Shown here: piece after piece, positions 5,904 to 24,217 of the stretch
How the letters are laid out: each line of letters opens with the position of its first letter
Position numbering within the stretch: position 1 is the first letter of the stretch
Assembly: GCA_947259185.1 (NCBI GenBank)
Contig: CAMYKT010000020.1
Location: forward strand, 1,007-33,006
Source of the DNA: an uncultured Methanobacteriaceae archaeon
GTDB taxonomy: Archaea; Methanobacteriota; Methanobacteria; Methanobacteriales; Methanobacteriaceae
Length of the DNA: 32,000 bases
Direction of reading: 5' to 3'
Translations under genes and position numbers: made by a program
The notes under the pieces: model-generated
What the model saw: only the letters and a program-made list of their open reading frames with translations
Database searches by the model: none
What the model was told of the DNA's origin: nothing

Positions 5904-6201
5904 TATAATAGCCCTTTGTATTAATTATGAATGGGAGATGTACTAATTTATTACCTGTTCTAATTAATAATTGGTTAATTTTCTAAATAATTTTTATTAA
6001 TAAAGTTAATTTAATAAGGTACAATAACAAAATAAAAATACGGTTAAAATCTTTTTAAAAATCAGTTTTTTTAAATAAATACGCATGATTTGCGTCTTAT
6101 TAAGCATATTCTATCCTGGAATATTATTATGCAGGTTAAAATTTTAAAGATTAAAATCATGAGGAATTACTAATAAAATATTTACAAACAATGGTGATTA
6201 C

Positions 6202-7164
6202 ATGAGTGGACCATGGGTGGAAAAGTACAGACCAGCTACACTGGAAGATGTTGTTGGTCAGGATCATATCATAGAAAGGCTCAAAGCATATGTGAAGGAT
6301 GAGAGCATGCCTAATCTCATGTTTACTGGGCCTGCAGGTGTAGGTAAGACTACCACTGCTCTTGCTTTGTCTAAATCAATTTTAGGTGAATACTGGAGAC
6401 AGAACTTCCTGGAACTTAATGCTTCAGATGCCAGGGGTATTGATACCGTGCGGACCAATATCAAAAACTTCTGCCGCTTAAAACCAGTGGGAGCTCCCTT
6501 TAGAATAATATTTTTGGATGAAGTGGATAACATGACCAAAGATGCTCAGCATGCCCTTAGAAGGGAAATGGAAATGTATACTAAGACTTCTTCTTTCATA
6601 CTATCCTGTAATTATTCTTCAAAAATCATAGACCCTATACAGTCTCGCTGTGCCATATTCCGATTTACACCGGTAAAAGGGCACCAAATAATTAAGAGAC
6701 TGGAATATATCGCCCAGGAAGAAGGGCTGGATTATGATCCCGCGGCCATAGAAACCATGGTTTACTTTGCAGAAGGGGACCTGAGAAAGGCTATCAATAT
6801 TCTACAATCCTCTGCTTCAGTGGGGGAAAAAATCACTGAAGACAGTATTTACCAGGTAATCTCTAAAGCCAGACCTAAAGATGTTAAAAAAATGATTATA
6901 AAGGCATTGAATGGGGATTTCATGGGAGCACGTGACTTACTTCGCGAAATCATGGTTTTACAGGGTACCAGTGGGGAGGATATGGTAAATCAGATTTATC
7001 AGGATGTTTCCCGAATGGCCACTGAAGATGAATTAGATGGTCCTTCCTACCTGGAGATAATTGAAGCCATTGCTGAAACTGATTTTAGAATAAGGGAAGG
7101 TGCTAATCCAAGAATACAATTAGAAGCACTTTTAACCAGGTTTTTATACAAGGCCCGGACTTAA
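6202..7164 (+). CDS. rfcS: Replication factor C small subunit
   Basis: 320 aa. PWVEKYRP (RFC box II), Walker [10 protein letters not shown], Walker B LDEVDNMT, and the SRC motif (QSRCAIFRF). No intein. Confidence 0.95.
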
Positions 7165-7198
7165 GATAATATAATCACTCTTATTTGAGGATAATTAC

Positions 7199-14390: not shown

Positions 14391-14789
14391 CTAGATTATT
14401 GATGTCTCTAAACCAGATCCAGTTTCTAAAAATTCAATATAATTGGTTAAAAACTTATCATATTCTTGTATGGCTTCTATGGCTTTAGCTTTAATATCTT
14501 CATATCCCGCAGGGGGAGTACTTGCTTCTAGATCAGAAAGTATGGCCTGTACATCTGCCTGACTATTTTCCAGTCTACTTTTTAATTCATCTTCAGTTAT
14601 ATTCCCATCAACCTGGGATTGTAAATTAGAATTCACTTCCATTCCAATTTCCCCCATTTTAGAAATATAACCACTTATTTCCTTAAGGTATTCTGCCCCA
14701 TCCTGATTATTTCCAATACAACCTGATACCAGAACTAAACTGGAAACCAACAATATTATAAAAATACTCTTAATTTTCACATCAAACAC
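14391..14789 (-). CDS. Putative secreted lipoprotein (small helical protein)
   Basis: Signal peptide plus lipobox-like VLVSGC (KIKSIFIILLVSSLVLVSGCIG). The track start is GTG at 14789. An in-frame GTG at 14780 (giving MKIKSIF...) sits 7 nt after GGGGGGTG and is at least as plausible. Confidence 0.7.
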   Translation of the reverse strand: MFDVKIKSIFIILLVSSLVLVSGCIGNNQDGAEYLKEISGYISKMGEIGMEVNSNLQSQVDGNITEDELKSRLENSQADVQAILSDLEASTPPAGYEDIKAKAIEAIQEYDKFLTNYIEFLETGSGLETSII

Positions 14790-17309: not shown

Positions 17310-18002
17310 GTGATGAATATGGAAGACTATGATGTGAGTGGATATGATATTGTTTCTGAAAAAATAAAAGAAAATCTGGGACTTAAAAGATCTCCGGTGG
17401 CCATAAAATTTGTTCTAAAAAAAGAGGATTTACCTGAGAATATTGAGGAAATTGATAAACCAGTAAGGCACTGTGAAATGGTAACCCGGGCCAGCCGGGG
17501 TGAAACCTTCTATGCCACTTCCCAGGATCAATCCTGTAAAGGTGGAGCAGCAGCCATCGGTGCAGGTGAAGCGCCAGAAAAAATTAAAACAGGTGAATTT
17601 TATTATGATCTGGGACGTTTTTCCAGTATAGGCGCGGCTAAAAGGACCCTGGATGCTATTCCTAAAATAGATATGGATATTTATGCTACTATTTATGCTC
17701 CCCTGGAAGATGCTACCTTCCATCCGGATATAATTGTGGTGGTGGGAAATCCGGCTCAGGCTATGAAATTATCCCAGGCACTGGTCTACACTCTGGGAGG
17801 GAGGGTAGAAGCAGATTTCTCCGGTATACAGTCTTTGTGTGCTGATGCGGTGGCCGGACCTTTTACAAGTAAAAATCCTAATATAACCCTGGGTTGCAGT
17901 GGATCCCGAAAATTTGCAGGTATTGAAGATGAAGAAGTAATTGTGGGACTTACTGGGGAAAATATTGGGTGTGTGGTTAATGCTCTGGATGCTATTAGCT
18001 AG
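17310..18002 (+). CDS. DUF169 (COG2043) family protein
   Basis: 230 aa. SPVAIKF near the N-terminus and conserved cysteines (RHCEM, QSCKGG, SLCADA, LGCSGSRKF), matching my recollection of DUF169. Confidence 0.65.
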   Translation: MMNMEDYDVSGYDIVSEKIKENLGLKRSPVAIKFVLKKEDLPENIEEIDKPVRHCEMVTRASRGETFYATSQDQSCKGGAAAIGAGEAPEKIKTGEFYYDLGRFSSIGAAKRTLDAIPKIDMDIYATIYAPLEDATFHPDIIVVVGNPAQAMKLSQALVYTLGGRVEADFSGIQSLCADAVAGPFTSKNPNITLGCSGSRKFAGIEDEEVIVGLTGENIGCVVNALDAIS

Positions 18003-18012
18003 CATCCCCCTA

Positions 18013-18702
18013 TTATTCTTCTTTAAAATCATTTAAAATAAGTTCATAATCCCTGTAATGATTTATATTAATTAATTCCTGCTTATTTTCTGGAGGGAAT
18101 CCATAAAATTCCACTCCTTCTTTAACCATTCTTCTTAACATGGGATTGAGGTTCATTTTATATTGGGGCAGGTAATGCAAAAGCAGATTCCTGGAAGAGG
18201 CCAAGGGCATCCCTAAACCTTCAGCAGAATCCAGACGACCGTAAGTTTTTCTACCCAGAATAGAAACCATGTTATCCCGGTTATCACTATTTATAATTTT
18301 ATCTTTTAATTTTCTAAGGCTATTACTTTTTACGGTGGGCTGATCACCAGCTACACAAAGGCAGATATCATTAGAAGCAGATTTTAATCCATTATACAAT
18401 GACCGGGCCAGGGGAACATCAACAGGATTATTTTCAATTATTTTTAAGCGAGGGTCATGGATATTACTTATGGCATGTACTATTTCATCCTGGTAATGAC
18501 CTACCACCAGGATACATTCCTCTACCGGGACATTTAATACACGCTGGATGGTGTGCTGCAGCAGGGGTTTACCCTTAATTTCTAAAATCAGCTTATTTTT
18601 CAGTGGCAGGCCTCTTTTTTCCAGGTCTTCCCTCATGCGGCGGTTTTGCCCAGCTGCAGTTATTATTGCACTGATACTCATTTTATCGTATGATTTACTC
18701 AT
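18013..18702 (-). CDS. MobA/MocA-like nucleotidyltransferase (NTP_transf_3 fold)
   Basis: 229 aa. AIITAAGQNRRM (the LAGGxSxRM-type NTP loop), KPLLQHTIQRV, and VAGDQP (the DQP metal/substrate motif). It is the last gene of the Mur-ligase operon. Confidence 0.75.
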   Translation of the reverse strand: MSKSYDKMSISAIITAAGQNRRMREDLEKRGLPLKNKLILEIKGKPLLQHTIQRVLNVPVEECILVVGHYQDEIVHAISNIHDPRLKIIENNPVDVPLARSLYNGLKSASNDICLCVAGDQPTVKSNSLRKLKDKIINSDNRDNMVSILGRKTYGRLDSAEGLGMPLASSRNLLLHYLPQYKMNLNPMLRRMVKEGVEFYGFPPENKQELININHYRDYELILNDFKEE

Positions 18703-18785: not shown

Positions 18786-19994
18786 CTAATTGGGTACTAA
18801 TTCATAGACTTCCGCATAAATCTGTGTATTTCCTGCTGCTCCTGTGGTCCACATAACGATTAGCAGGGGGTATTCTCTATTATTATTCACCTTTACTCCG
18901 GTGGCAGGATCCACTCCAAAGGCTATACAGTGGAATGACCAGTTTAAGCCAATTGGTAGAGGCACTCCGGCAGAAGTCACTGCGCCCCTTAAGGCCCGGG
19001 CTGGGGGACAGGTCCCATGGGAAGCAAATCCACCTGGTGCTTCAGGATCCCTTACTCCCACAAATCCACCTGACTTTTTACCAGAAGCCATATTTTCAGG
19101 AGGTACTATGGTCCCGTTCCACCTATTGGCAAATTCTCGAGCATTATGGGCCCGGGAATAATCATCGTACTCGGGATAAGACCCTAAATAACTAACAGAT
19201 CCGGATACTTTCTGGGGAGTGTAGTCATCCATATAGGCCATAACCGGGGCACCTTCTGGATAATCTTTAACATAATCCAGCACAGATTTCCCGAAATAAA
19301 CTTCAATTTGGGAGGGAGGTACTGTATTTCTACCATCACTGAAATTGGTGAGAGCATAATCCAGTACAATTTTATCTCCTATCTGGGCCTTATCATACCA
19401 TTTTTTGACTTGTTCCCCAGAAATGTACTGATTAGGGATGGTATCATTACTGATATCTTCCCCACCAACCACCCGCAGGGTCTGGTTATTCTCACTGATT
19501 TCTAAACCGTCTTTAGTTTTATATCCATAGACATAGGGGTTTTTAAATCCCCAAATAAAATTATCTGGAGGGCTAACTGTTAATTTTCCAGCATTTACCA
19601 TTAGCATTCCTGGTCCTTCATAACCGGTGGCAATTCCATACCGGGAAATACTACCTCCGGTAAGATGCACAATAGGGGTAGGGATACTACCGGTTAATAA
19701 CGACTCCATTAAATCCATAATACGGTAATCCCGGGCAAATTCAATCAGGTAACGGGGGTGGGTTATTAAGGGAACCCTCCTTATTTTACTATCATCCACC
19801 ACATCAGTTCCCGGTAATACCGTATCACCTGGTGTTAAACCGGTTATTTCCTCTGCATTTTGAGCAGGATATACTCCTTCCAGGTAAACTCCCAGGGGGG
19901 TGCTTATAATACCTAAAAATATCAACACTACCAGTATTTTAAATGCCGAGTTCTCCCAGTATTTTTTTAGAATATTTAACTCCTCCTTCTCCAA
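18786..19994 (-). CDS. Membrane-anchored extracytoplasmic protein of unknown function, with a Cys/His-containing VanW-like C-terminal region
   Basis: 402 aa. Single N-terminal transmembrane segment (FKILVVLIFLGIISTPLGVYL). C-terminus GGFASHGTCPPARALRGAVTSAGVPLPIGLNWSFHCIAFGVDPATGVKVNNNREYPLLI (18855-19034). TTG start at 19994, with a GGAGGAG just downstream, so the exact start is uncertain. It overlaps the end of the upstream ligase gene. Confidence 0.7.
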   Translation of the reverse strand: MEKEELNILKKYWENSAFKILVVLIFLGIISTPLGVYLEGVYPAQNAEEITGLTPGDTVLPGTDVVDDSKIRRVPLITHPRYLIEFARDYRIMDLMESLLTGSIPTPIVHLTGGSISRYGIATGYEGPGMLMVNAGKLTVSPPDNFIWGFKNPYVYGYKTKDGLEISENNQTLRVVGGEDISNDTIPNQYISGEQVKKWYDKAQIGDKIVLDYALTNFSDGRNTVPPSQIEVYFGKSVLDYVKDYPEGAPVMAYMDDYTPQKVSGSVSYLGSYPEYDDYSRAHNAREFANRWNGTIVPPENMASGKKSGGFVGVRDPEAPGGFASHGTCPPARALRGAVTSAGVPLPIGLNWSFHCIAFGVDPATGVKVNNNREYPLLIVMWTTGAAGNTQIYAEVYELVPN

Positions 19995-22900
19995 TTACTA
20001 ATATGATATCATTATCTTTAACTAATTCCAGTGCTTTTTCCAGGGCCTCCTGTACCTGATTTTTACTGGCACCCAGAGTTCCTTTTTTTATATTCTCGGC
20101 ACTGGATTTGGTTTCCACAATCTCTTTATTGATATACTTAGATGATTTAAGGGCGGCATAGGAAGCAGGTATCACCACATCTGCATAGTTAAGGATTTTT
20201 GCAATATCCCCATCACCCTGGCTGCCACTTTCTGAGGAAATAGTGTTTACCACGATTAGTTGAGAATCATCATCTTTTTTACTTAAAATTCTTTGTATAA
20301 CTGCTTTTACACCGGCCGGATTGTGAGCATAATCAATAATTAAAGAAGGATGGTCACTTATTTTTTCAAACCTACCTTCCACACCCGCAAAATCCTGAAG
20401 CCCGGTCACTATATCTTCAAATTTAATACCCATAGCCCAGGCACCTGCAGCAGCAGCCAGGGCATTGTAAATATTATATATGCCTTCTATTTTTAATTTA
20501 ACCATAGCCTGTTCTGATTTAATCCGGAGTAACATACTGTTTTCTGTTACCTGACGTCCGGATACATCCAGTGGTGGTTTTTTAAATCCACATATACATT
20601 TATATTTGCCTAAATGCCCTAAATAATGTTTTTCATACTTGAGGAGTGCTTCACACAGGGGACATTCCCGTCCTTCAGAAAAGGTATTAATTCTGGTATT
20701 AATATTTTCAATACCATAGAATATTATATTTTCCGGGTTTTGGGAATAGGCAAAACTGGCTACCAGAGGGTCATCTGCATTGAGTATTAATATATCGGCC
20801 ACGTCAGTTATTTCTTTTTTACACTGTACATACAGGTTAAAATCATCATCTTCTTTTAAATGGTCCCTGGAAATATTGGTTACCAGTCCCAGATCAACTT
20901 CACAGTTTAAAGCAGAGTTTTTTATTTCATCCGCGTTTCCAAAGGTTCCTATTTCCACCACCGCCATGTCCCCTTTAAGACGAGTTTGCAAAGCAGGAAT
21001 AAGTTCAGTATTACCCTGGATAGGCATATGGTGTTCAGGAACATGGTAATCTGCTTTATAGAGAATATGTTTTAGTATCTGGGTGGTGGTGGTTTTACCA
21101 TTGGTACCGGTTATCCCTATTACTGGTTTATCCACCTTACAGATGGCCATCACTTCATCCACACCGATTATATCCGCAGAACTATTCTGGGTAATCAGAT
21201 CCCATACCTTCTGGTTTTTTTCCAGTCCCGGGGTGAGTACAATGGTTTGGGCTTTTTTAAGTACCTCCGGGGAGTGGCCTCCCAGGTCCATTTTTATGTC
21301 TTCGCGGGTAAAAACATCCTTCAAATAGGTATCCGGGCTCACATCAGAAACTGTTACATCCGCCCCGTTGTGCTTCAAAACACGGGCTAATAGACTTCCT
21401 ACAGTGCCACAACCACCTATGACCACAATATTGGAGTTATAATCCTGATAATAATCAATGGCCTTTTTGATATCATTCTTAACATTTTCATAGGCATTTA
21501 CCACTCCCGGCCCCAGGTGTAATATGGTATCACCGGGTGCTGAAAGTTCCAGAGCCATTAAAATGGCGGTGGTCACATCTTCCACCCCATAGCTTTCCAC
21601 TGCACCTGCAGCAGAGATTACTTCCTCCACCGCTTTCCAGTCAACTACCTCGGTGGTTTCATTTTTAGCACTGGAAATAATCACATCTGCCTTTTTATCT
21701 AAAATCCCACCAATTTTTGATTTATCTCTTATGGTAAGGGTATCAGGGTTATCCAGACTTATTATAAGTCTTCCCGGAACAGATAAGCCTTCTAATAATT
21801 TTTCCATACTTTCCGGGTTATGGGCAGCATCCATAAATATATTAACCTCATTAAGTTGACCTATTTTCTCAAAACGACCTTTAACCCCATGAAATGACTC
21901 AATTCTTTCTTTCAAATATTCCAGACCAAAACCCAGAACCAGGCCAGTGCCCACAGCAGCCAGCGCATTCTCAATATTACAGCTACCCGGTATTTTCAAG
22001 TTTATATCCGTTTTAAATGGTCCCACCATTTTCCGGGAGAAGTTACCACAACTGCAATTGATATGGCCACAATTTTCACATACGCTGCTAGGGAGGACCG
22101 TGCTCACCAGGTTGAAACTGGAACCATCCAGCCCTTTAAGCTGAATATCTTCTGCATAGATATTTAGATCCACTTCTAAAGGACCATAAGTCTTATCTTC
22201 AAAATTGATGATTTGAGGAGCCCCTAAACCATAGTAAATACTTTTCTTATTACTTTTTTTACCCTGCTGGACCACCACCGGGTCATCACCATTTAAAATC
22301 AATACCCCCTGGGGGGATATTAAATGGGATAGGGAAAAGTTACGATTGACATAATCTTCATAGCTGGTGAATTCATCCATATGATCCGGGGTGAGGTTGG
22401 TTACCACCCCGGCACATAGTTCCAATCCATCAGCCATCCTTATAGTTCCATGGGGCAGTTCGAATACAGCCAGCTCTTTATCACTGGTTTTTTCATTAAC
22501 CACCAGTTCTATGAGTCCTTCAATAACCAGAGAATCCTGCAGGGATGAAAAAGTAATGGTTTCCAGCTCACCTTCCAGTACATGGTTTATCATATTAGTG
22601 GTGGTGGTTTTACCATCGGTCCCGCCAATACCCACCATAGGTATCTCTATTAAAGAATTCAAAATCTCTCCGATATGGGAAGTACTTATCAGGTCTATTT
22701 TTTTATTTTCTCTGGTCTTTTCAATGAATATACGTATATCTGCCTGAGGAGGTATATTAGGGGAAATAAATATGGCATCTGCCCATAAAACGCTGTCAAA
22801 TATATGGGTTCCCAACTCAAAAACAACCCCCTTTTCTTCCAGCTTTTTAATTTTTTTCCGGGCTTTTTTAGGAAGGGAGTTATAATCCTGCATATCTGAA

Positions 22901-23022
22901 ACCCGTACCTGGTTACCCAAATAGTTTAATAAATTAGCAGCAGGTCTTCCTGCATTTCCTGCTCCCACTACCAGTATCTTTTTACCATTTATCAATGTAT
23001 CAACCTTTAGAGAGTGATTCAA
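19939..23022 (-). CDS. Tandem-fused double Mur-ligase-family protein (two complete MurD-N/MurT-like modules); putative pseudomurein peptide ligase
   Basis: 1027 aa. Module 1 (aa 1-~527): VVGAGNAGRPAA, P-loop GIGGTDGKTTT, Cys4 CENCGHINCSC (22048-22080), GRFE, DAAHNP. Module 2 (aa ~528-1027): VIGGCGTVGSLLA, GITGTNGKTTT, CPLC-x18-CIC (20590-20664), GRFE, DYAHNP. An alternative TTG start at 22995 gives (M)INGKKILVVGAG, just after the upstream stop. Confidence 0.85.
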   Translation of the reverse strand: MNHSLKVDTLINGKKILVVGAGNAGRPAANLLNYLGNQVRVSDMQDYNSLPKKARKKIKKLEEKGVVFELGTHIFDSVLWADAIFISPNIPPQADIRIFIEKTRENKKIDLISTSHIGEILNSLIEIPMVGIGGTDGKTTTTNMINHVLEGELETITFSSLQDSLVIEGLIELVVNEKTSDKELAVFELPHGTIRMADGLELCAGVVTNLTPDHMDEFTSYEDYVNRNFSLSHLISPQGVLILNGDDPVVVQQGKKSNKKSIYYGLGAPQIINFEDKTYGPLEVDLNIYAEDIQLKGLDGSSFNLVSTVLPSSVCENCGHINCSCGNFSRKMVGPFKTDINLKIPGSCNIENALAAVGTGLVLGFGLEYLKERIESFHGVKGRFEKIGQLNEVNIFMDAAHNPESMEKLLEGLSVPGRLIISLDNPDTLTIRDKSKIGGILDKKADVIISSAKNETTEVVDWKAVEEVISAAGAVESYGVEDVTTAILMALELSAPGDTILHLGPGVVNAYENVKNDIKKAIDYYQDYNSNIVVIGGCGTVGSLLARVLKHNGADVTVSDVSPDTYLKDVFTREDIKMDLGGHSPEVLKKAQTIVLTPGLEKNQKVWDLITQNSSADIIGVDEVMAICKVDKPVIGITGTNGKTTTTQILKHILYKADYHVPEHHMPIQGNTELIPALQTRLKGDMAVVEIGTFGNADEIKNSALNCEVDLGLVTNISRDHLKEDDDFNLYVQCKKEITDVADILILNADDPLVASFAYSQNPENIIFYGIENINTRINTFSEGRECPLCEALLKYEKHYLGHLGKYKCICGFKKPPLDVSGRQVTENSMLLRIKSEQAMVKLKIEGIYNIYNALAAAAGAWAMGIKFEDIVTGLQDFAGVEGRFEKISDHPSLIIDYAHNPAGVKAVIQRILSKKDDDSQLIVVNTISSESGSQGDGDIAKILNYADVVIPASYAALKSSKYINKEIVETKSSAENIKKGTLGASKNQVQEALEKALELVKDNDIILVIGEGGVKYSKKILGELGI

Positions 23023-24217
23023 TATAATTTTGCATTTCTTTTATTTTTTCTTGACCATTTCCGCCTATAAAAATATTTTTAAATGATAGGTATGGTTTTA
23101 TAATCTCCGGGAGCTGATCAAATTCCTTTATGATTTTGACTTCACCTTCAAAACCCAGTGATATTAATTTCTTTACTGCCAGGGAAGTGCTGTCCTCCAG
23201 ACCAGGGAATAAAATTATGGTCTCGGGATTGGATTTACATACTTCCTCTAAAATTTTAAAACGCCATTTTTCCTCTGCCCGGGGGGTTCCCACTACCATC
23301 ACCGGAAACTCAGCTTCCTTTAAAACCTCCTGGATGGCCCCGGTGTTATCAGTTTTCCCCACCACAATGTGGCTGCCCTGAATATTAAACGATTTTATAC
23401 GCCCTTCCACTGGACTAAAATTCTCCAGTGAATCTTTAATAATATCCTCTCTTATTTTAAGAACATTAGCCACAGTTTCTGCTGCTCCTGCATTAATTTT
23501 ATTAAATTCTCCAAAAAGAAGAAGTTGGTAGGTGGTCTTATCATAAAAAGAGTACTTTAAAAGATTTTTTGATATCTCCACCAGATACTTATCCTGTTTA
23601 TTCAGGAGACTATTTTTTGATTTTAAAAATTTTCCCATGTTCCGGGCATAGTTTTCCAGGGACTGATGATGGTTCAGGTGGTCCGGCCCTATATTGGTGG
23701 CCACCACCAGGTCGAATTCAAAACAATGCTCTGCATATTCCAGGGTCATATCACAGACTTCCACAATCATAACCTGGTATTTATTAGAATCAGCTTCTAA
23801 AATTAATTCACTGTAACCATCAAATCCACCCCCAGAATTACCTCCAATTAAAACCTCCATACCGGCCTTTTCCAGTATGCTTTTTATCATTAAAGAGGTG
23901 GTGGTTTTACCATTGGTTCCTGTCACTCCAATGGTGAAAAGGGAGCGATGGGTATTTATTTTATCAGATAATAGCATCTTAGATTTTTTAATTTTTTCTC
24001 CTAAAGGAGTTTTCCATAATCCCGGACTAAGGGCCACTGCATCCGCAGAGAATATTTTCTCCTCATTATGGAATCCCAGATCCAGGTCTACAACATCTTC
24101 TTCCAGGATAATGCTTTTATTAAGATCAGTGGCATAAACCTGGTGACCTCTATTTTTAAGAGACCTGATAGCTTTTTTACCTTCAACTCCCAATCCAATT
24201 ACTGCAACTTTCATCAA
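23000..24217 (-). CDS. Mur-ligase-family protein (MurD-like N-domain); putative pseudomurein peptide ligase
   Basis: 405 aa. KVAVIGLGVEGKKA Rossmann domain, P-loop GVTGTNGKTTTS, ATNIGPDHL, and a short C-terminal domain with no Cys4 ribbon. Confidence 0.8.
   Translation of the reverse strand: MMKVAVIGLGVEGKKAIRSLKNRGHQVYATDLNKSIILEEDVVDLDLGFHNEEKIFSADAVALSPGLWKTPLGEKIKKSKMLLSDKINTHRSLFTIGVTGTNGKTTTSLMIKSILEKAGMEVLIGGNSGGGFDGYSELILEADSNKYQVMIVEVCDMTLEYAEHCFEFDLVVATNIGPDHLNHHQSLENYARNMGKFLKSKNSLLNKQDKYLVEISKNLLKYSFYDKTTYQLLLFGEFNKINAGAAETVANVLKIREDIIKDSLENFSPVEGRIKSFNIQGSHIVVGKTDNTGAIQEVLKEAEFPVMVVGTPRAEEKWRFKILEEVCKSNPETIILFPGLEDSTSLAVKKLISLGFEGEVKIIKEFDQLPEIIKPYLSFKNIFIGGNGQEKIKEMQNYIESLSKG

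Follow-up and report, generated by a model that had tools for sequence, protein, structure and literature searches.

A divergent VanW-like cysteine domain in PmurA of the pseudomurein biosynthesis operon: a candidate for an extracytoplasmic enzyme acting on stem peptides

Genes of the Mfer335 family were described by Subedi et al. as always lying in 'gene cluster 1' and as occurring only in pseudomurein-containing methanogens; these authors noted a membrane-insertion domain near the N-terminus of the product and speculated on a role in phosphoryl transfer (PMC10117817). Lupo et al. recorded the same family as OG0001147, a domain-less hypothetical protein of cluster B (PMC11915815). Cha et al. 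(2026) named the gene PMurA and hypothesised that its product phosphorylates glutamate (PMC12996149). Since the gene that they studied in M. ruminantium is located between PMurB and PMurD2 (PMC12996149), we regard it as a member of the same family. In this study we analyzed a stretch of 32,000 nucleotides (hereafter called the window) from an uncultured Methanobacteriaceae archaeon (GenBank GCA_947259185.1, contig CAMYKT010000020.1, positions 1,007 to 33,006), in which the gene in question occupies 18786..19994 on the minus strand. This gene encodes PmurA, a conserved component of the pseudomurein biosynthesis operon. That is, the product matched the curated equivalog hidden Markov model NCBIfam NF053640 ('Mfer335 family protein PmurA') along its whole length, with residues 24-401 on profile positions 1-378 of 378 (E=1.4e-158, 527.8 bits, cutoff 400). 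The original prediction for this gene, made from the DNA letters, had proposed the product as the pseudomurein cross-linking enzyme. It missed that the family had already been named (Mfer335, OG0001147, PmurA, NF053640) and that its pseudomurein-specific, ligase-linked and membrane-inserted character was known (PMC10117817).

In the literature searched, the enzyme that cross-links pseudomurein is still unassigned, as the original prediction had stated. No transpeptidase orthologue was found for pseudomurein (PMC10117817). The published candidates are transglutaminases (PMC2812497, PMC11915815), and Lupo et al. regarded the exported transglutaminases as the best of them (PMC11915815). In bacteria, VanW domains are Cys-dependent transpeptidases or carboxypeptidases carried on membrane-anchored extracellular proteins; the catalytic triad proposed for them consists of Cys, His and Asp, and their fold is unrelated to that of YkuD (PMC11348318). 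The literature searched contained no link between VanW, or any transpeptidase fold, and pseudomurein. The link between PmurA and VanW that we describe below appears to be new, while the family itself has already been named and described.

The C-terminal domain of PmurA (residues 250-402; 18789..19247, minus strand) is, as judged by profile-profile comparison, homologous to the bacterial VanW domain, though very divergent from it. The relationship appeared at the profile-profile level only, and at that level it was statistically robust. We used a VanW consensus as the probe and retrieved genuine plasmid-borne VanW proteins, which were verified with Pfam at 111-176 bits; two VanW alignments (A3 and A4, the second partly overlapping the first) were then built by expansion. 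When the PmurA family was compared with VanW by hhalign, the probability was 89.4% (P=2e-6) over 142 columns, and the matching residues, 250-394, spanned the entire PF04294 domain. The C-terminal domain alone gave a probability of 92.4% (P=5.2e-7), and the comparison with the second VanW alignment gave 91.7% (P=7.7e-7). Across the runs, 115-152 columns were aligned. As controls, 120 column shuffles of VanW gave a mean score of 16.2 and a maximum of 24.9, compared with the observed score of 56.4, and reversed alignments gave 17-18. Three colinear segments of the match scored separately (P=7e-6, 8e-4 and 1.7e-5), and the comparison still reached P=1.8e-6 when the Cys helix was masked.

The two families have several conserved positions in common. 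These are R281-x2-N284 of PmurA and R-x2-N256 of VanW in the first helix, a Pro after strand 1, G327-x-C329 and G308-x-C310, L335 and L316, and N371 and N359. We also compared AlphaFold2 (AF2) models of PmurA and of a genuine VanW protein, of which the predicted local distance difference test (pLDDT) scores were 91.1 and 90.9, respectively. The order of elements was alike in both models: a helix, two strands, a hairpin region, a Cys-initiated helix and three strands. C329 begins the PmurA helix 329-341, and C310 is at the start of the VanW helix 309-322. Compared with the VanW model, the PmurA model is without the strand and loop after the Cys helix, and its hairpin is shorter. A Foldseek search with the PmurA model (E<=0.001) found no match in the PDB or in BFVD, and a PDB sequence search with the PmurA family profile gave no matches. 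The genuine VanW model was equally without a fold match in the PDB, which contains no VanW chain. Because of this, the Foldseek negative for PmurA is uninformative about VanW. The PDB negatives for both models agree with the description of VanW as an orphan fold (PMC11348318).

The putative active site of PmurA, proposed from invariance and from the hhalign comparison, is a loop followed by the start of a helix, A-S-H326-G-T-C329-P-P-A-R333-A-L-R336 (18987..19025, minus strand), in which the codon of His326 lies at 19019-19017 and that of Cys329 at 19010-19008. Motifs were counted over 82 loci, and invariance was judged from an alignment of 42 homologues. The motif H326-G-x-C329-P-x-x-R333-x-x-R336 was present in 82/82 loci, and its H, G, C, P, R and R were invariant in the aligned homologues. 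C329 aligns with C310, the catalytic Cys of VanW (GGGxC), and G327 with G308; where VanW has the first two Gly of this motif, PmurA has Ser-His. From these results we infer that Cys329 acts as the nucleophile and that His326 takes the role of the base. His326, Arg333 and Arg336 are likely to be the replacement catalytic and substrate-binding residues. Since the Cys-His motif is invariant, a purely structural role of PmurA is argued against.

The original prediction had read a VanW core in the C-terminus, with a Cys followed by a His and then by G-x-D-x-A. The core itself held, in that residues 250-394 match VanW with C329 on the catalytic Cys. The later part of the motif failed, as did membership of the Pfam family. 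His355, Cys356 and Asp362 were considered as catalytic candidates and were rejected, because they are not conserved across the orthologues: H355 was found in 8/82, C356 in 4/82, and D362 in 13/82, the residue at that position being mostly Asn or Ser. Thus, of the Cys and His residues that had been pointed out, C329 proved to be invariant (82/82), and H355 and C356 did not.

PmurA possesses a single candidate membrane anchor at residues 20-38 (ILVVLIFLGIISTPLGVYL; 19881..19937, minus strand), which was located by hydropathy, by flanking charge and by the helix in the AF2 model. Its mean Kyte-Doolittle value over 19 residues was 2.48, and no other segment of the protein exceeded 1.6. In nearly all full-length homologues the net charge is positive before this segment and negative, or acidic, after it, and residues 2-41 are helical in the AF2 model. 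For the comparison of loci we used the best 80 of 192 relatives, which with the window make 81 loci. In 81/81 of them, an open frame encodes a stretch rich in Lys and Arg and then about 20 hydrophobic residues. These features indicate that PmurA is probably an N-in/C-out signal anchor protein with its body outside the cytoplasm, in agreement with the single N-terminal helix of the original prediction.

The predicted ectodomain contains two N-x-S/T sequons, at residues 183-185 (N-D-T; window ~19440-19448, minus strand) and 293-295 (N-G-T; ~19110-19118, minus strand), which are conserved in 34/42 and 38/42 homologues, respectively. Such conservation would fit N-glycosylation of an exported archaeal protein. 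Alternatively, N293 and T295 may be conserved simply because they serve the function of the VanW-like domain.

The distribution of PmurA fits that of the pseudomurein-containing methanogens. A word-indexed search gave 89 homologues, and every named one was methanobacterial except one metagenome-assembled genome (MAG) labelled Methanomicrobiales. A scan of one genome per species gave the 192 relatives mentioned above, of which the best 80 were all from Methanobacteria with one exception, again a MAG labelled Methanomicrobiales. An exhaustive HMMER profile search of 1.84 billion representative proteins gave 68 matches only, which were consistent with family members or fragments (six were inspected). 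The phyletic range given by the named homologues and by these 68 matches agrees with the expectation that orthologues are confined to pseudomurein-containing lineages. In essentially all of the 80 related loci with a sufficiently long contig, a ligase gene (pMurC or pMurD2), PmurA and PmurB follow in this order on one strand, and in nearly all of them PmurB is directly downstream of PmurA. Neither the linkage nor the phyletic restriction is new, because both had already been described (PMC10117817).

Two loci deserve separate mention. The locus labelled 'Methanomicrobiales archaeon' (L007, JBNGDB010000006.1) carries pMurD2, PmurA, PmurB and DUF169, and its PmurA is 50% identical to that of the window. 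We think that this MAG was probably given the wrong taxonomic label; if the label were right, the pseudomurein cluster would extend beyond the orders in which it is expected. Among the full-length homologues, the most divergent one (P0105, 392 residues, gene at 6001-7179) is encoded on contigs of 62% GC (L085/L086) that we take as Methanopyrus-like, a label that is presumed. This homologue retains the anchor and the AHGCCPPARALR motif.

Taking these findings together, we tentatively favor a reading of PmurA as an enzyme that is tethered to the membrane, lies outside the cytoplasm and carries a divergent Cys domain of the VanW type. It would act on exported pseudomurein stem peptides as a transpeptidase or, by using water, as a carboxypeptidase. 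We rate the chance of this reading as slightly below even. Within this reading, the most likely role would be that of a transpeptidase which releases the terminal residue and forms the cross-link, and the alternative would be that the same chemistry serves a carboxypeptidase or an endopeptidase. The protein would consist of a short Lys-rich cytoplasmic N-terminus, one anchor (~20-38), an extracytoplasmic beta-rich part (45-249) and the C-terminal domain (~250-402). The reaction may proceed as follows. The lipid-linked disaccharide-pentapeptide would first be flipped across the membrane. On the outer face, Cys329, which begins its helix, would attack the bond that holds the C-terminal residue in a donor stem peptide; this residue would leave, and a thioester acyl-enzyme would form. 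The amino group of a neighboring stem would then resolve the thioester and so make the cross-link; if water did so instead, the enzyme would work as a carboxypeptidase. In its most specific form, our proposal is that PmurA is the pseudomurein transpeptidase, that is, an archaeal offshoot of VanW in which the base has moved to His326 and which cross-links all-L stems extracellularly by release of the terminal residue. We regard this specific form as possible and somewhat doubtful. On this view, PmurA may have come from Gram-positive-type bacteria along with the Mur ligases.

Several findings weigh against the view of PmurA as a VanW-type enzyme outside the membrane. A Pfam scan of PmurA at E<=1, which the original prediction had suggested as a check, matched neither VanW (PF04294) nor YkuD nor any other family, and the HMMER search described above reached no VanW protein and no bridging sequences. 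The hhalign probability was about 90% and not above 95%. Moreover, the VanW hypothesis was picked after inspection of the sequence, and the E value becomes ~0.02-0.05 when it is corrected for about 25,000 Pfam families. The 'IVxRxxHS' segment of VanW, which carries the catalytic His H333, is deleted in the PmurA family (a deletion of 8 residues in the hhalign comparison), and the column aligned with the VanW Asp (G-x-D-A-T) is not conserved. The gene of the divergent homologue P0105 does not lie beside the ligase genes or PmurB; its flanks are genes for a TP_methylase, a MoaA-like radical-SAM protein and an alanyl-tRNA synthetase, and the operon linkage is therefore not universal. The linkage of orthologues to the ligase genes, which the original prediction had named as a check, thus stands for about 80 loci and not for this one. 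The topology is read from hydropathy and charge with an uncertain start codon, and Lupo et al. scored the orthogroup as having no signal peptide and no transmembrane segment (PMC11915815). Finally, recombinant PMurA of M. ruminantium was reported to degrade ATP (PMC12996149). As for the candidacy of PmurA as the cross-linker, it is supported by the predicted anchor, the operon, the phyletic range and the VanW-like match with its invariant Cys, and it is weakened by the lack of Pfam membership and of the VanW His and Asp.

The scoring by Lupo et al. and the degradation of ATP also speak for the published idea of an ATP-dependent PmurA in the cytoplasm that would catalyze the first step of the pathway by phosphorylating glutamate to feed PmurB (Subedi 2021, Cha 2026), a rival role that the original prediction missed. 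PmurA adjoins PmurB and the ligases, and Subedi et al. listed Mfer335 among the possible phosphoryl-transfer enzymes (PMC10117817). The recombinant protein converted ATP to ADP and AMP, and the expected product, Glu-phosphate, was not detected when this was tested (PMC12996149). With regard to the prediction of Lupo et al., many PmurA entries in the databases have 372-373 residues and begin at a downstream Met, so that they are without the anchor. The 'no TM' score in PMC11915815 is probably explained by such models. In every locus an in-frame hydrophobic anchor precedes the body, with a charge pattern that points outward. PmurA matched no kinase, ATP-grasp or P-loop family in Pfam or NCBIfam, and the one homology that could be detected is with a transpeptidase domain that is extracellular. 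Neither the predicted topology nor the absence of a nucleotide-binding signature agrees with the model of a cytoplasmic glutamate kinase; both argue against this model, and we consider it very improbable.

A closer rival keeps the same fold and the same Cys and regards PmurA as a hydrolase only, that is, as a carboxypeptidase that trims stems or an endopeptidase that remodels the wall, while another enzyme, for example an exported transglutaminase-like protein, makes the cross-link. A classical transglutaminase uses a Gln amide and does not remove a terminal residue, and this chemistry is a point against giving the cross-link to such a protein. The transglutaminase homologues are nevertheless exported and abundant in these genomes and are the published favorite for cross-linking (PMC2812497, PMC11915815). 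The VanW enzymes Ldt4 and Ldt5 are also carboxypeptidases, and their Cys-to-Ala mutants keep some of this activity (PMC11348318). In addition, the loss of the VanW His and Asp in PmurA could reflect a changed reaction. On the other hand, a single-copy gene that is always present in a core biosynthetic operon looks more like a gene for synthesis than one for remodelling (PMC10117817). We think that a role of PmurA as a hydrolase only is unlikely, and we continue to prefer an enzyme whose most likely role is that of a transpeptidase.

The first part of the predicted ectodomain (residues 45-249; 19248..19862, minus strand) consists mostly of beta-strands in the AF2 model, with pLDDT scores of 83-97. 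It had no match in Pfam and no fold match in the PDB or BFVD, and residues 42-252 were not similar to the PG_binding_4 region of VanW proteins. W199, F218, D220 and R222, among others, are invariant in it. We speculate that this part could bind the substrate or carry a second function. The latter possibility belongs to a further alternative, in which PmurA would perform a different acyl transfer, such as the attachment of proteins or polymers to pseudomurein, or would be a non-catalytic scaffold or substrate-presenting subunit for a glycan polymerase, or would have its main function in residues 45-249. YkuD-type L,D-transpeptidases attach proteins to peptidoglycan (PMC12274547), some L,D-transpeptidases attach the Braun lipoprotein, and the pseudomurein transglycosylase is also unknown (PMC2812497). 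Moreover, this half of the protein is without a detectable relative and yet keeps its invariant residues. No positive evidence for any specific other substrate was found, however, and the invariant Cys-His motif disagrees with the non-catalytic variant. We judge this group of alternatives to be quite unlikely compared with an enzyme that acts on stem peptides through its VanW-like domain.

We then considered the start of the PmurA gene. The longest open reading frame (ORF) has 402 codons from TTG 19994-19992 to the stop codon at 18786-18788, and the alternative starts are GTG 19928-19926 and TTG 19925-19923. If TTG 19994 is the start, the overlap with the upstream ligase gene is 56 nt. A Shine-Dalgarno (SD)-like GGAGGAG (19980..19986, minus strand), read from the sequence, lies inside the 3' end of the ligase gene, as the original prediction had noted. 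This motif cannot serve TTG 19994 as its start, because it is downstream of that codon, and this pairing was ruled out. The motif is located 6 nt before an in-frame ATT (19971..19973, minus strand), codon 8 of the long ORF, which we regard as a candidate non-canonical start from its SD spacing and from the comparison of orthologues. That is, one orthologue (L005) has ATG at the corresponding codon, three others (L008, L011, L013) carry a TGA in frame, two codons before it, and two (L022, L036) have GGAGG, then 6-7 nt, then ATT. In L061, ATA stands at the position of the ATG in L060.

Among the 81 loci, 18 have no ATG, GTG or TTG before the in-frame hydrophobic segment, and 16 of these 18 carry an SD-like motif and, behind it, an ATT or CTG located 7-12 codons upstream of that segment. 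The loci named for this pattern of a missing canonical start or an SD-like motif are L002, L003, L008, L011, L012, L018, L022, L036, L042, L047, L051, L059, L061, L075 and L080. These results suggest that non-canonical start codons may be used throughout the family, which would explain the widespread N-terminally shortened annotations. We had considered the conservation of the N-terminal peptide as a proof of the long start and rejected it, since the ligase frame constrains the DNA there and some orthologues have in-frame stops. Since part of the conservation in the overlap is imposed by the frame of the ligase gene, the start may be either TTG 19994 or ATT 19973; the predicted anchor is included in either case.

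In some orthologues, a canonical ATG just upstream is off the PmurA frame by one nucleotide, and a T6 or A5 homopolymer lies at the join between the two frames. In L042, L047 and L051, GGG TTT TTT CTG follows just after an out-of-frame ATG ATG, and L036 has an ATG and then an A5 run. The sequence T TTT TTC is a classical -1 slippery heptamer. These joins could be coincidence, assembly errors or programmed frameshifting. Initiation at ATT or CTG after an SD motif is preferred over a -1 frameshift or a homopolymer sequencing error, because it explains more loci.

PmurA is the third gene in a tightly packed, co-directional block of pMurD2, fused pMurD1+pMurC, PmurA and PmurB. The pMurD2 ligase gene (23000..24217, minus strand; NCBIfam NF053647, E=1.5e-175) is the first gene of the packed operon, and it shares 23 nt with the start of the fusion. 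The fused pMurD1+pMurC gene for a pseudomurein peptide ligase (19939..23022, minus strand) is the upstream partner of PmurA and encodes 1027 residues. NCBIfam places pMurD1 at residues 15-523 (E=4e-146) and pMurC at residues 533-1021 (E=5e-192), and Pfam finds two copies each of Mur_ligase_M and Mur_ligase_C. The downstream partner, pmurB (Mfer334 family; 18013..18702, minus strand), encodes a MobA-like nucleotidyltransferase (NCBIfam NF053639, 'pseudomurein biosynthesis protein PmurB', E=6e-93; Pfam NTP_transf_3). The coordinates, Pfam and NCBIfam thus agree with the originally described position of a 402-codon ORF between a fused Mur-ligase gene and a nucleotidyltransferase gene. From its packing and overlaps, including that of 23 nt, the four-gene block appears to be arranged for translational coupling.

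Other features of the region were also observed. pMurD1 and pMurC form a single ORF in the window and in its closest relatives (L001-L004), and they are separate genes in others. A DUF169 (COG2043) gene at 17310-18002 on the plus strand is convergent to pmurB and lies 10 nt from its end. Most of the related loci (L001-L080) likewise have a DUF169 homologue no more than a few kb downstream of pmurB, on the other strand, and this association is a conserved one. A small ORF at 14391-14789 on the minus strand encodes 132 residues, of which the N-terminal sequence ends in a lipobox-like LVSGC; its product is possibly an archaeal lipoprotein. The window has a GC content of 37% and, at the protein level, shows 89% identity with a Methanobacterium MAG.

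The cross-linking of pseudomurein strands has been an unsolved problem ever since an outline of the pathway was given around 1990; no homologue of a PBP or an L,D-transpeptidase was found, and transglutaminases were proposed only by default. The statistically supported link between PmurA and VanW makes this question directly testable. If the proposal of a VanW-derived transpeptidase is true, murein and pseudomurein would share ancestry in the peptide cross-linking step and not only in cytoplasmic ligation. PmurA would then also be a methanogen-specific, extracellularly accessible target for inhibitors, which would be relevant to the mitigation of rumen methane. The present result speaks against the published view of PmurA as a cytoplasmic glutamate kinase.

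Among the known systems, the nearest relatives of the PmurA C-terminal domain are the VanW-domain L,D-transpeptidases (PF04294), which include Ldt4 and Ldt5 of C. difficile, YoaR of B. subtilis and VanW of Enterococcus. PmurA resembles them in its N-terminal transmembrane helix and in the C-terminal position of the extracellular catalytic domain, both of which are predicted in PmurA, and in the colinear profile match over the whole domain. The order of elements, the Gly-preceded invariant Cys that opens the central helix and the R-x2-N, Pro, Leu and Asn positions are also alike. PmurA differs from them in being below detection by Pfam and HMMER, in the deletion of the His segment (RxxH[SY]) and in the lack of conservation at the Asp column (GxDAT). 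The loop of PmurA reads S-H-G-x-C-P-x-x-R-x-x-R, whereas that of VanW reads G-G-G-x-C-Q-V-S, and the beta-hairpin before the Cys loop is shortened in PmurA. In place of PG_binding_4 or G5, PmurA has a family-specific part of about 200 residues. Its host is archaeal, and its presumed substrate is the all-L pseudomurein stem with epsilon and gamma isopeptide bonds.

The YkuD L,D-transpeptidases (PF03734) are comparable to the role proposed for PmurA, since they carry out transpeptidation through a Cys acyl-enzyme on the outer face of the membrane. The YkuD signature around the nucleophile contains [S/T]-H-G-C. Compared with this, the A-[S/T]-H-G-x-C of PmurA is offset by one residue, and we take the resemblance as a lead only. 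Besides the negative Pfam scan at E<=1, there was no YkuD fold match to PmurA in the PDB, although the PDB has YkuD structures.

The transglutaminase-like or papain-fold proteins, such as the PeiW/PeiP endoisopeptidases and OG0000044, are exported Cys enzymes that act on pseudomurein peptides and are the published candidates for cross-linking. They have another fold, and no sequence relationship between them and PmurA was detected. They are multi-copy and unlinked to the biosynthetic clusters (PMC11915815), whereas PmurA is single-copy and embedded in the operon.

Finally, the gene in the window is a member of the Mfer335/OG0001147/PmurA family (NF053640). It occupies the same operon slot between a pMur ligase gene and PmurB without structural difference, and the family has the same restriction to Methanobacteriales and Methanopyrales as we report here. 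The published ideas of phosphoryl transfer and glutamate kinase activity differ from the reading that we have reached. Features of the locus in the window are the fusion of pMurD1 and pMurC upstream and the overlap of the PmurA ORF with the 3' end of this fusion.

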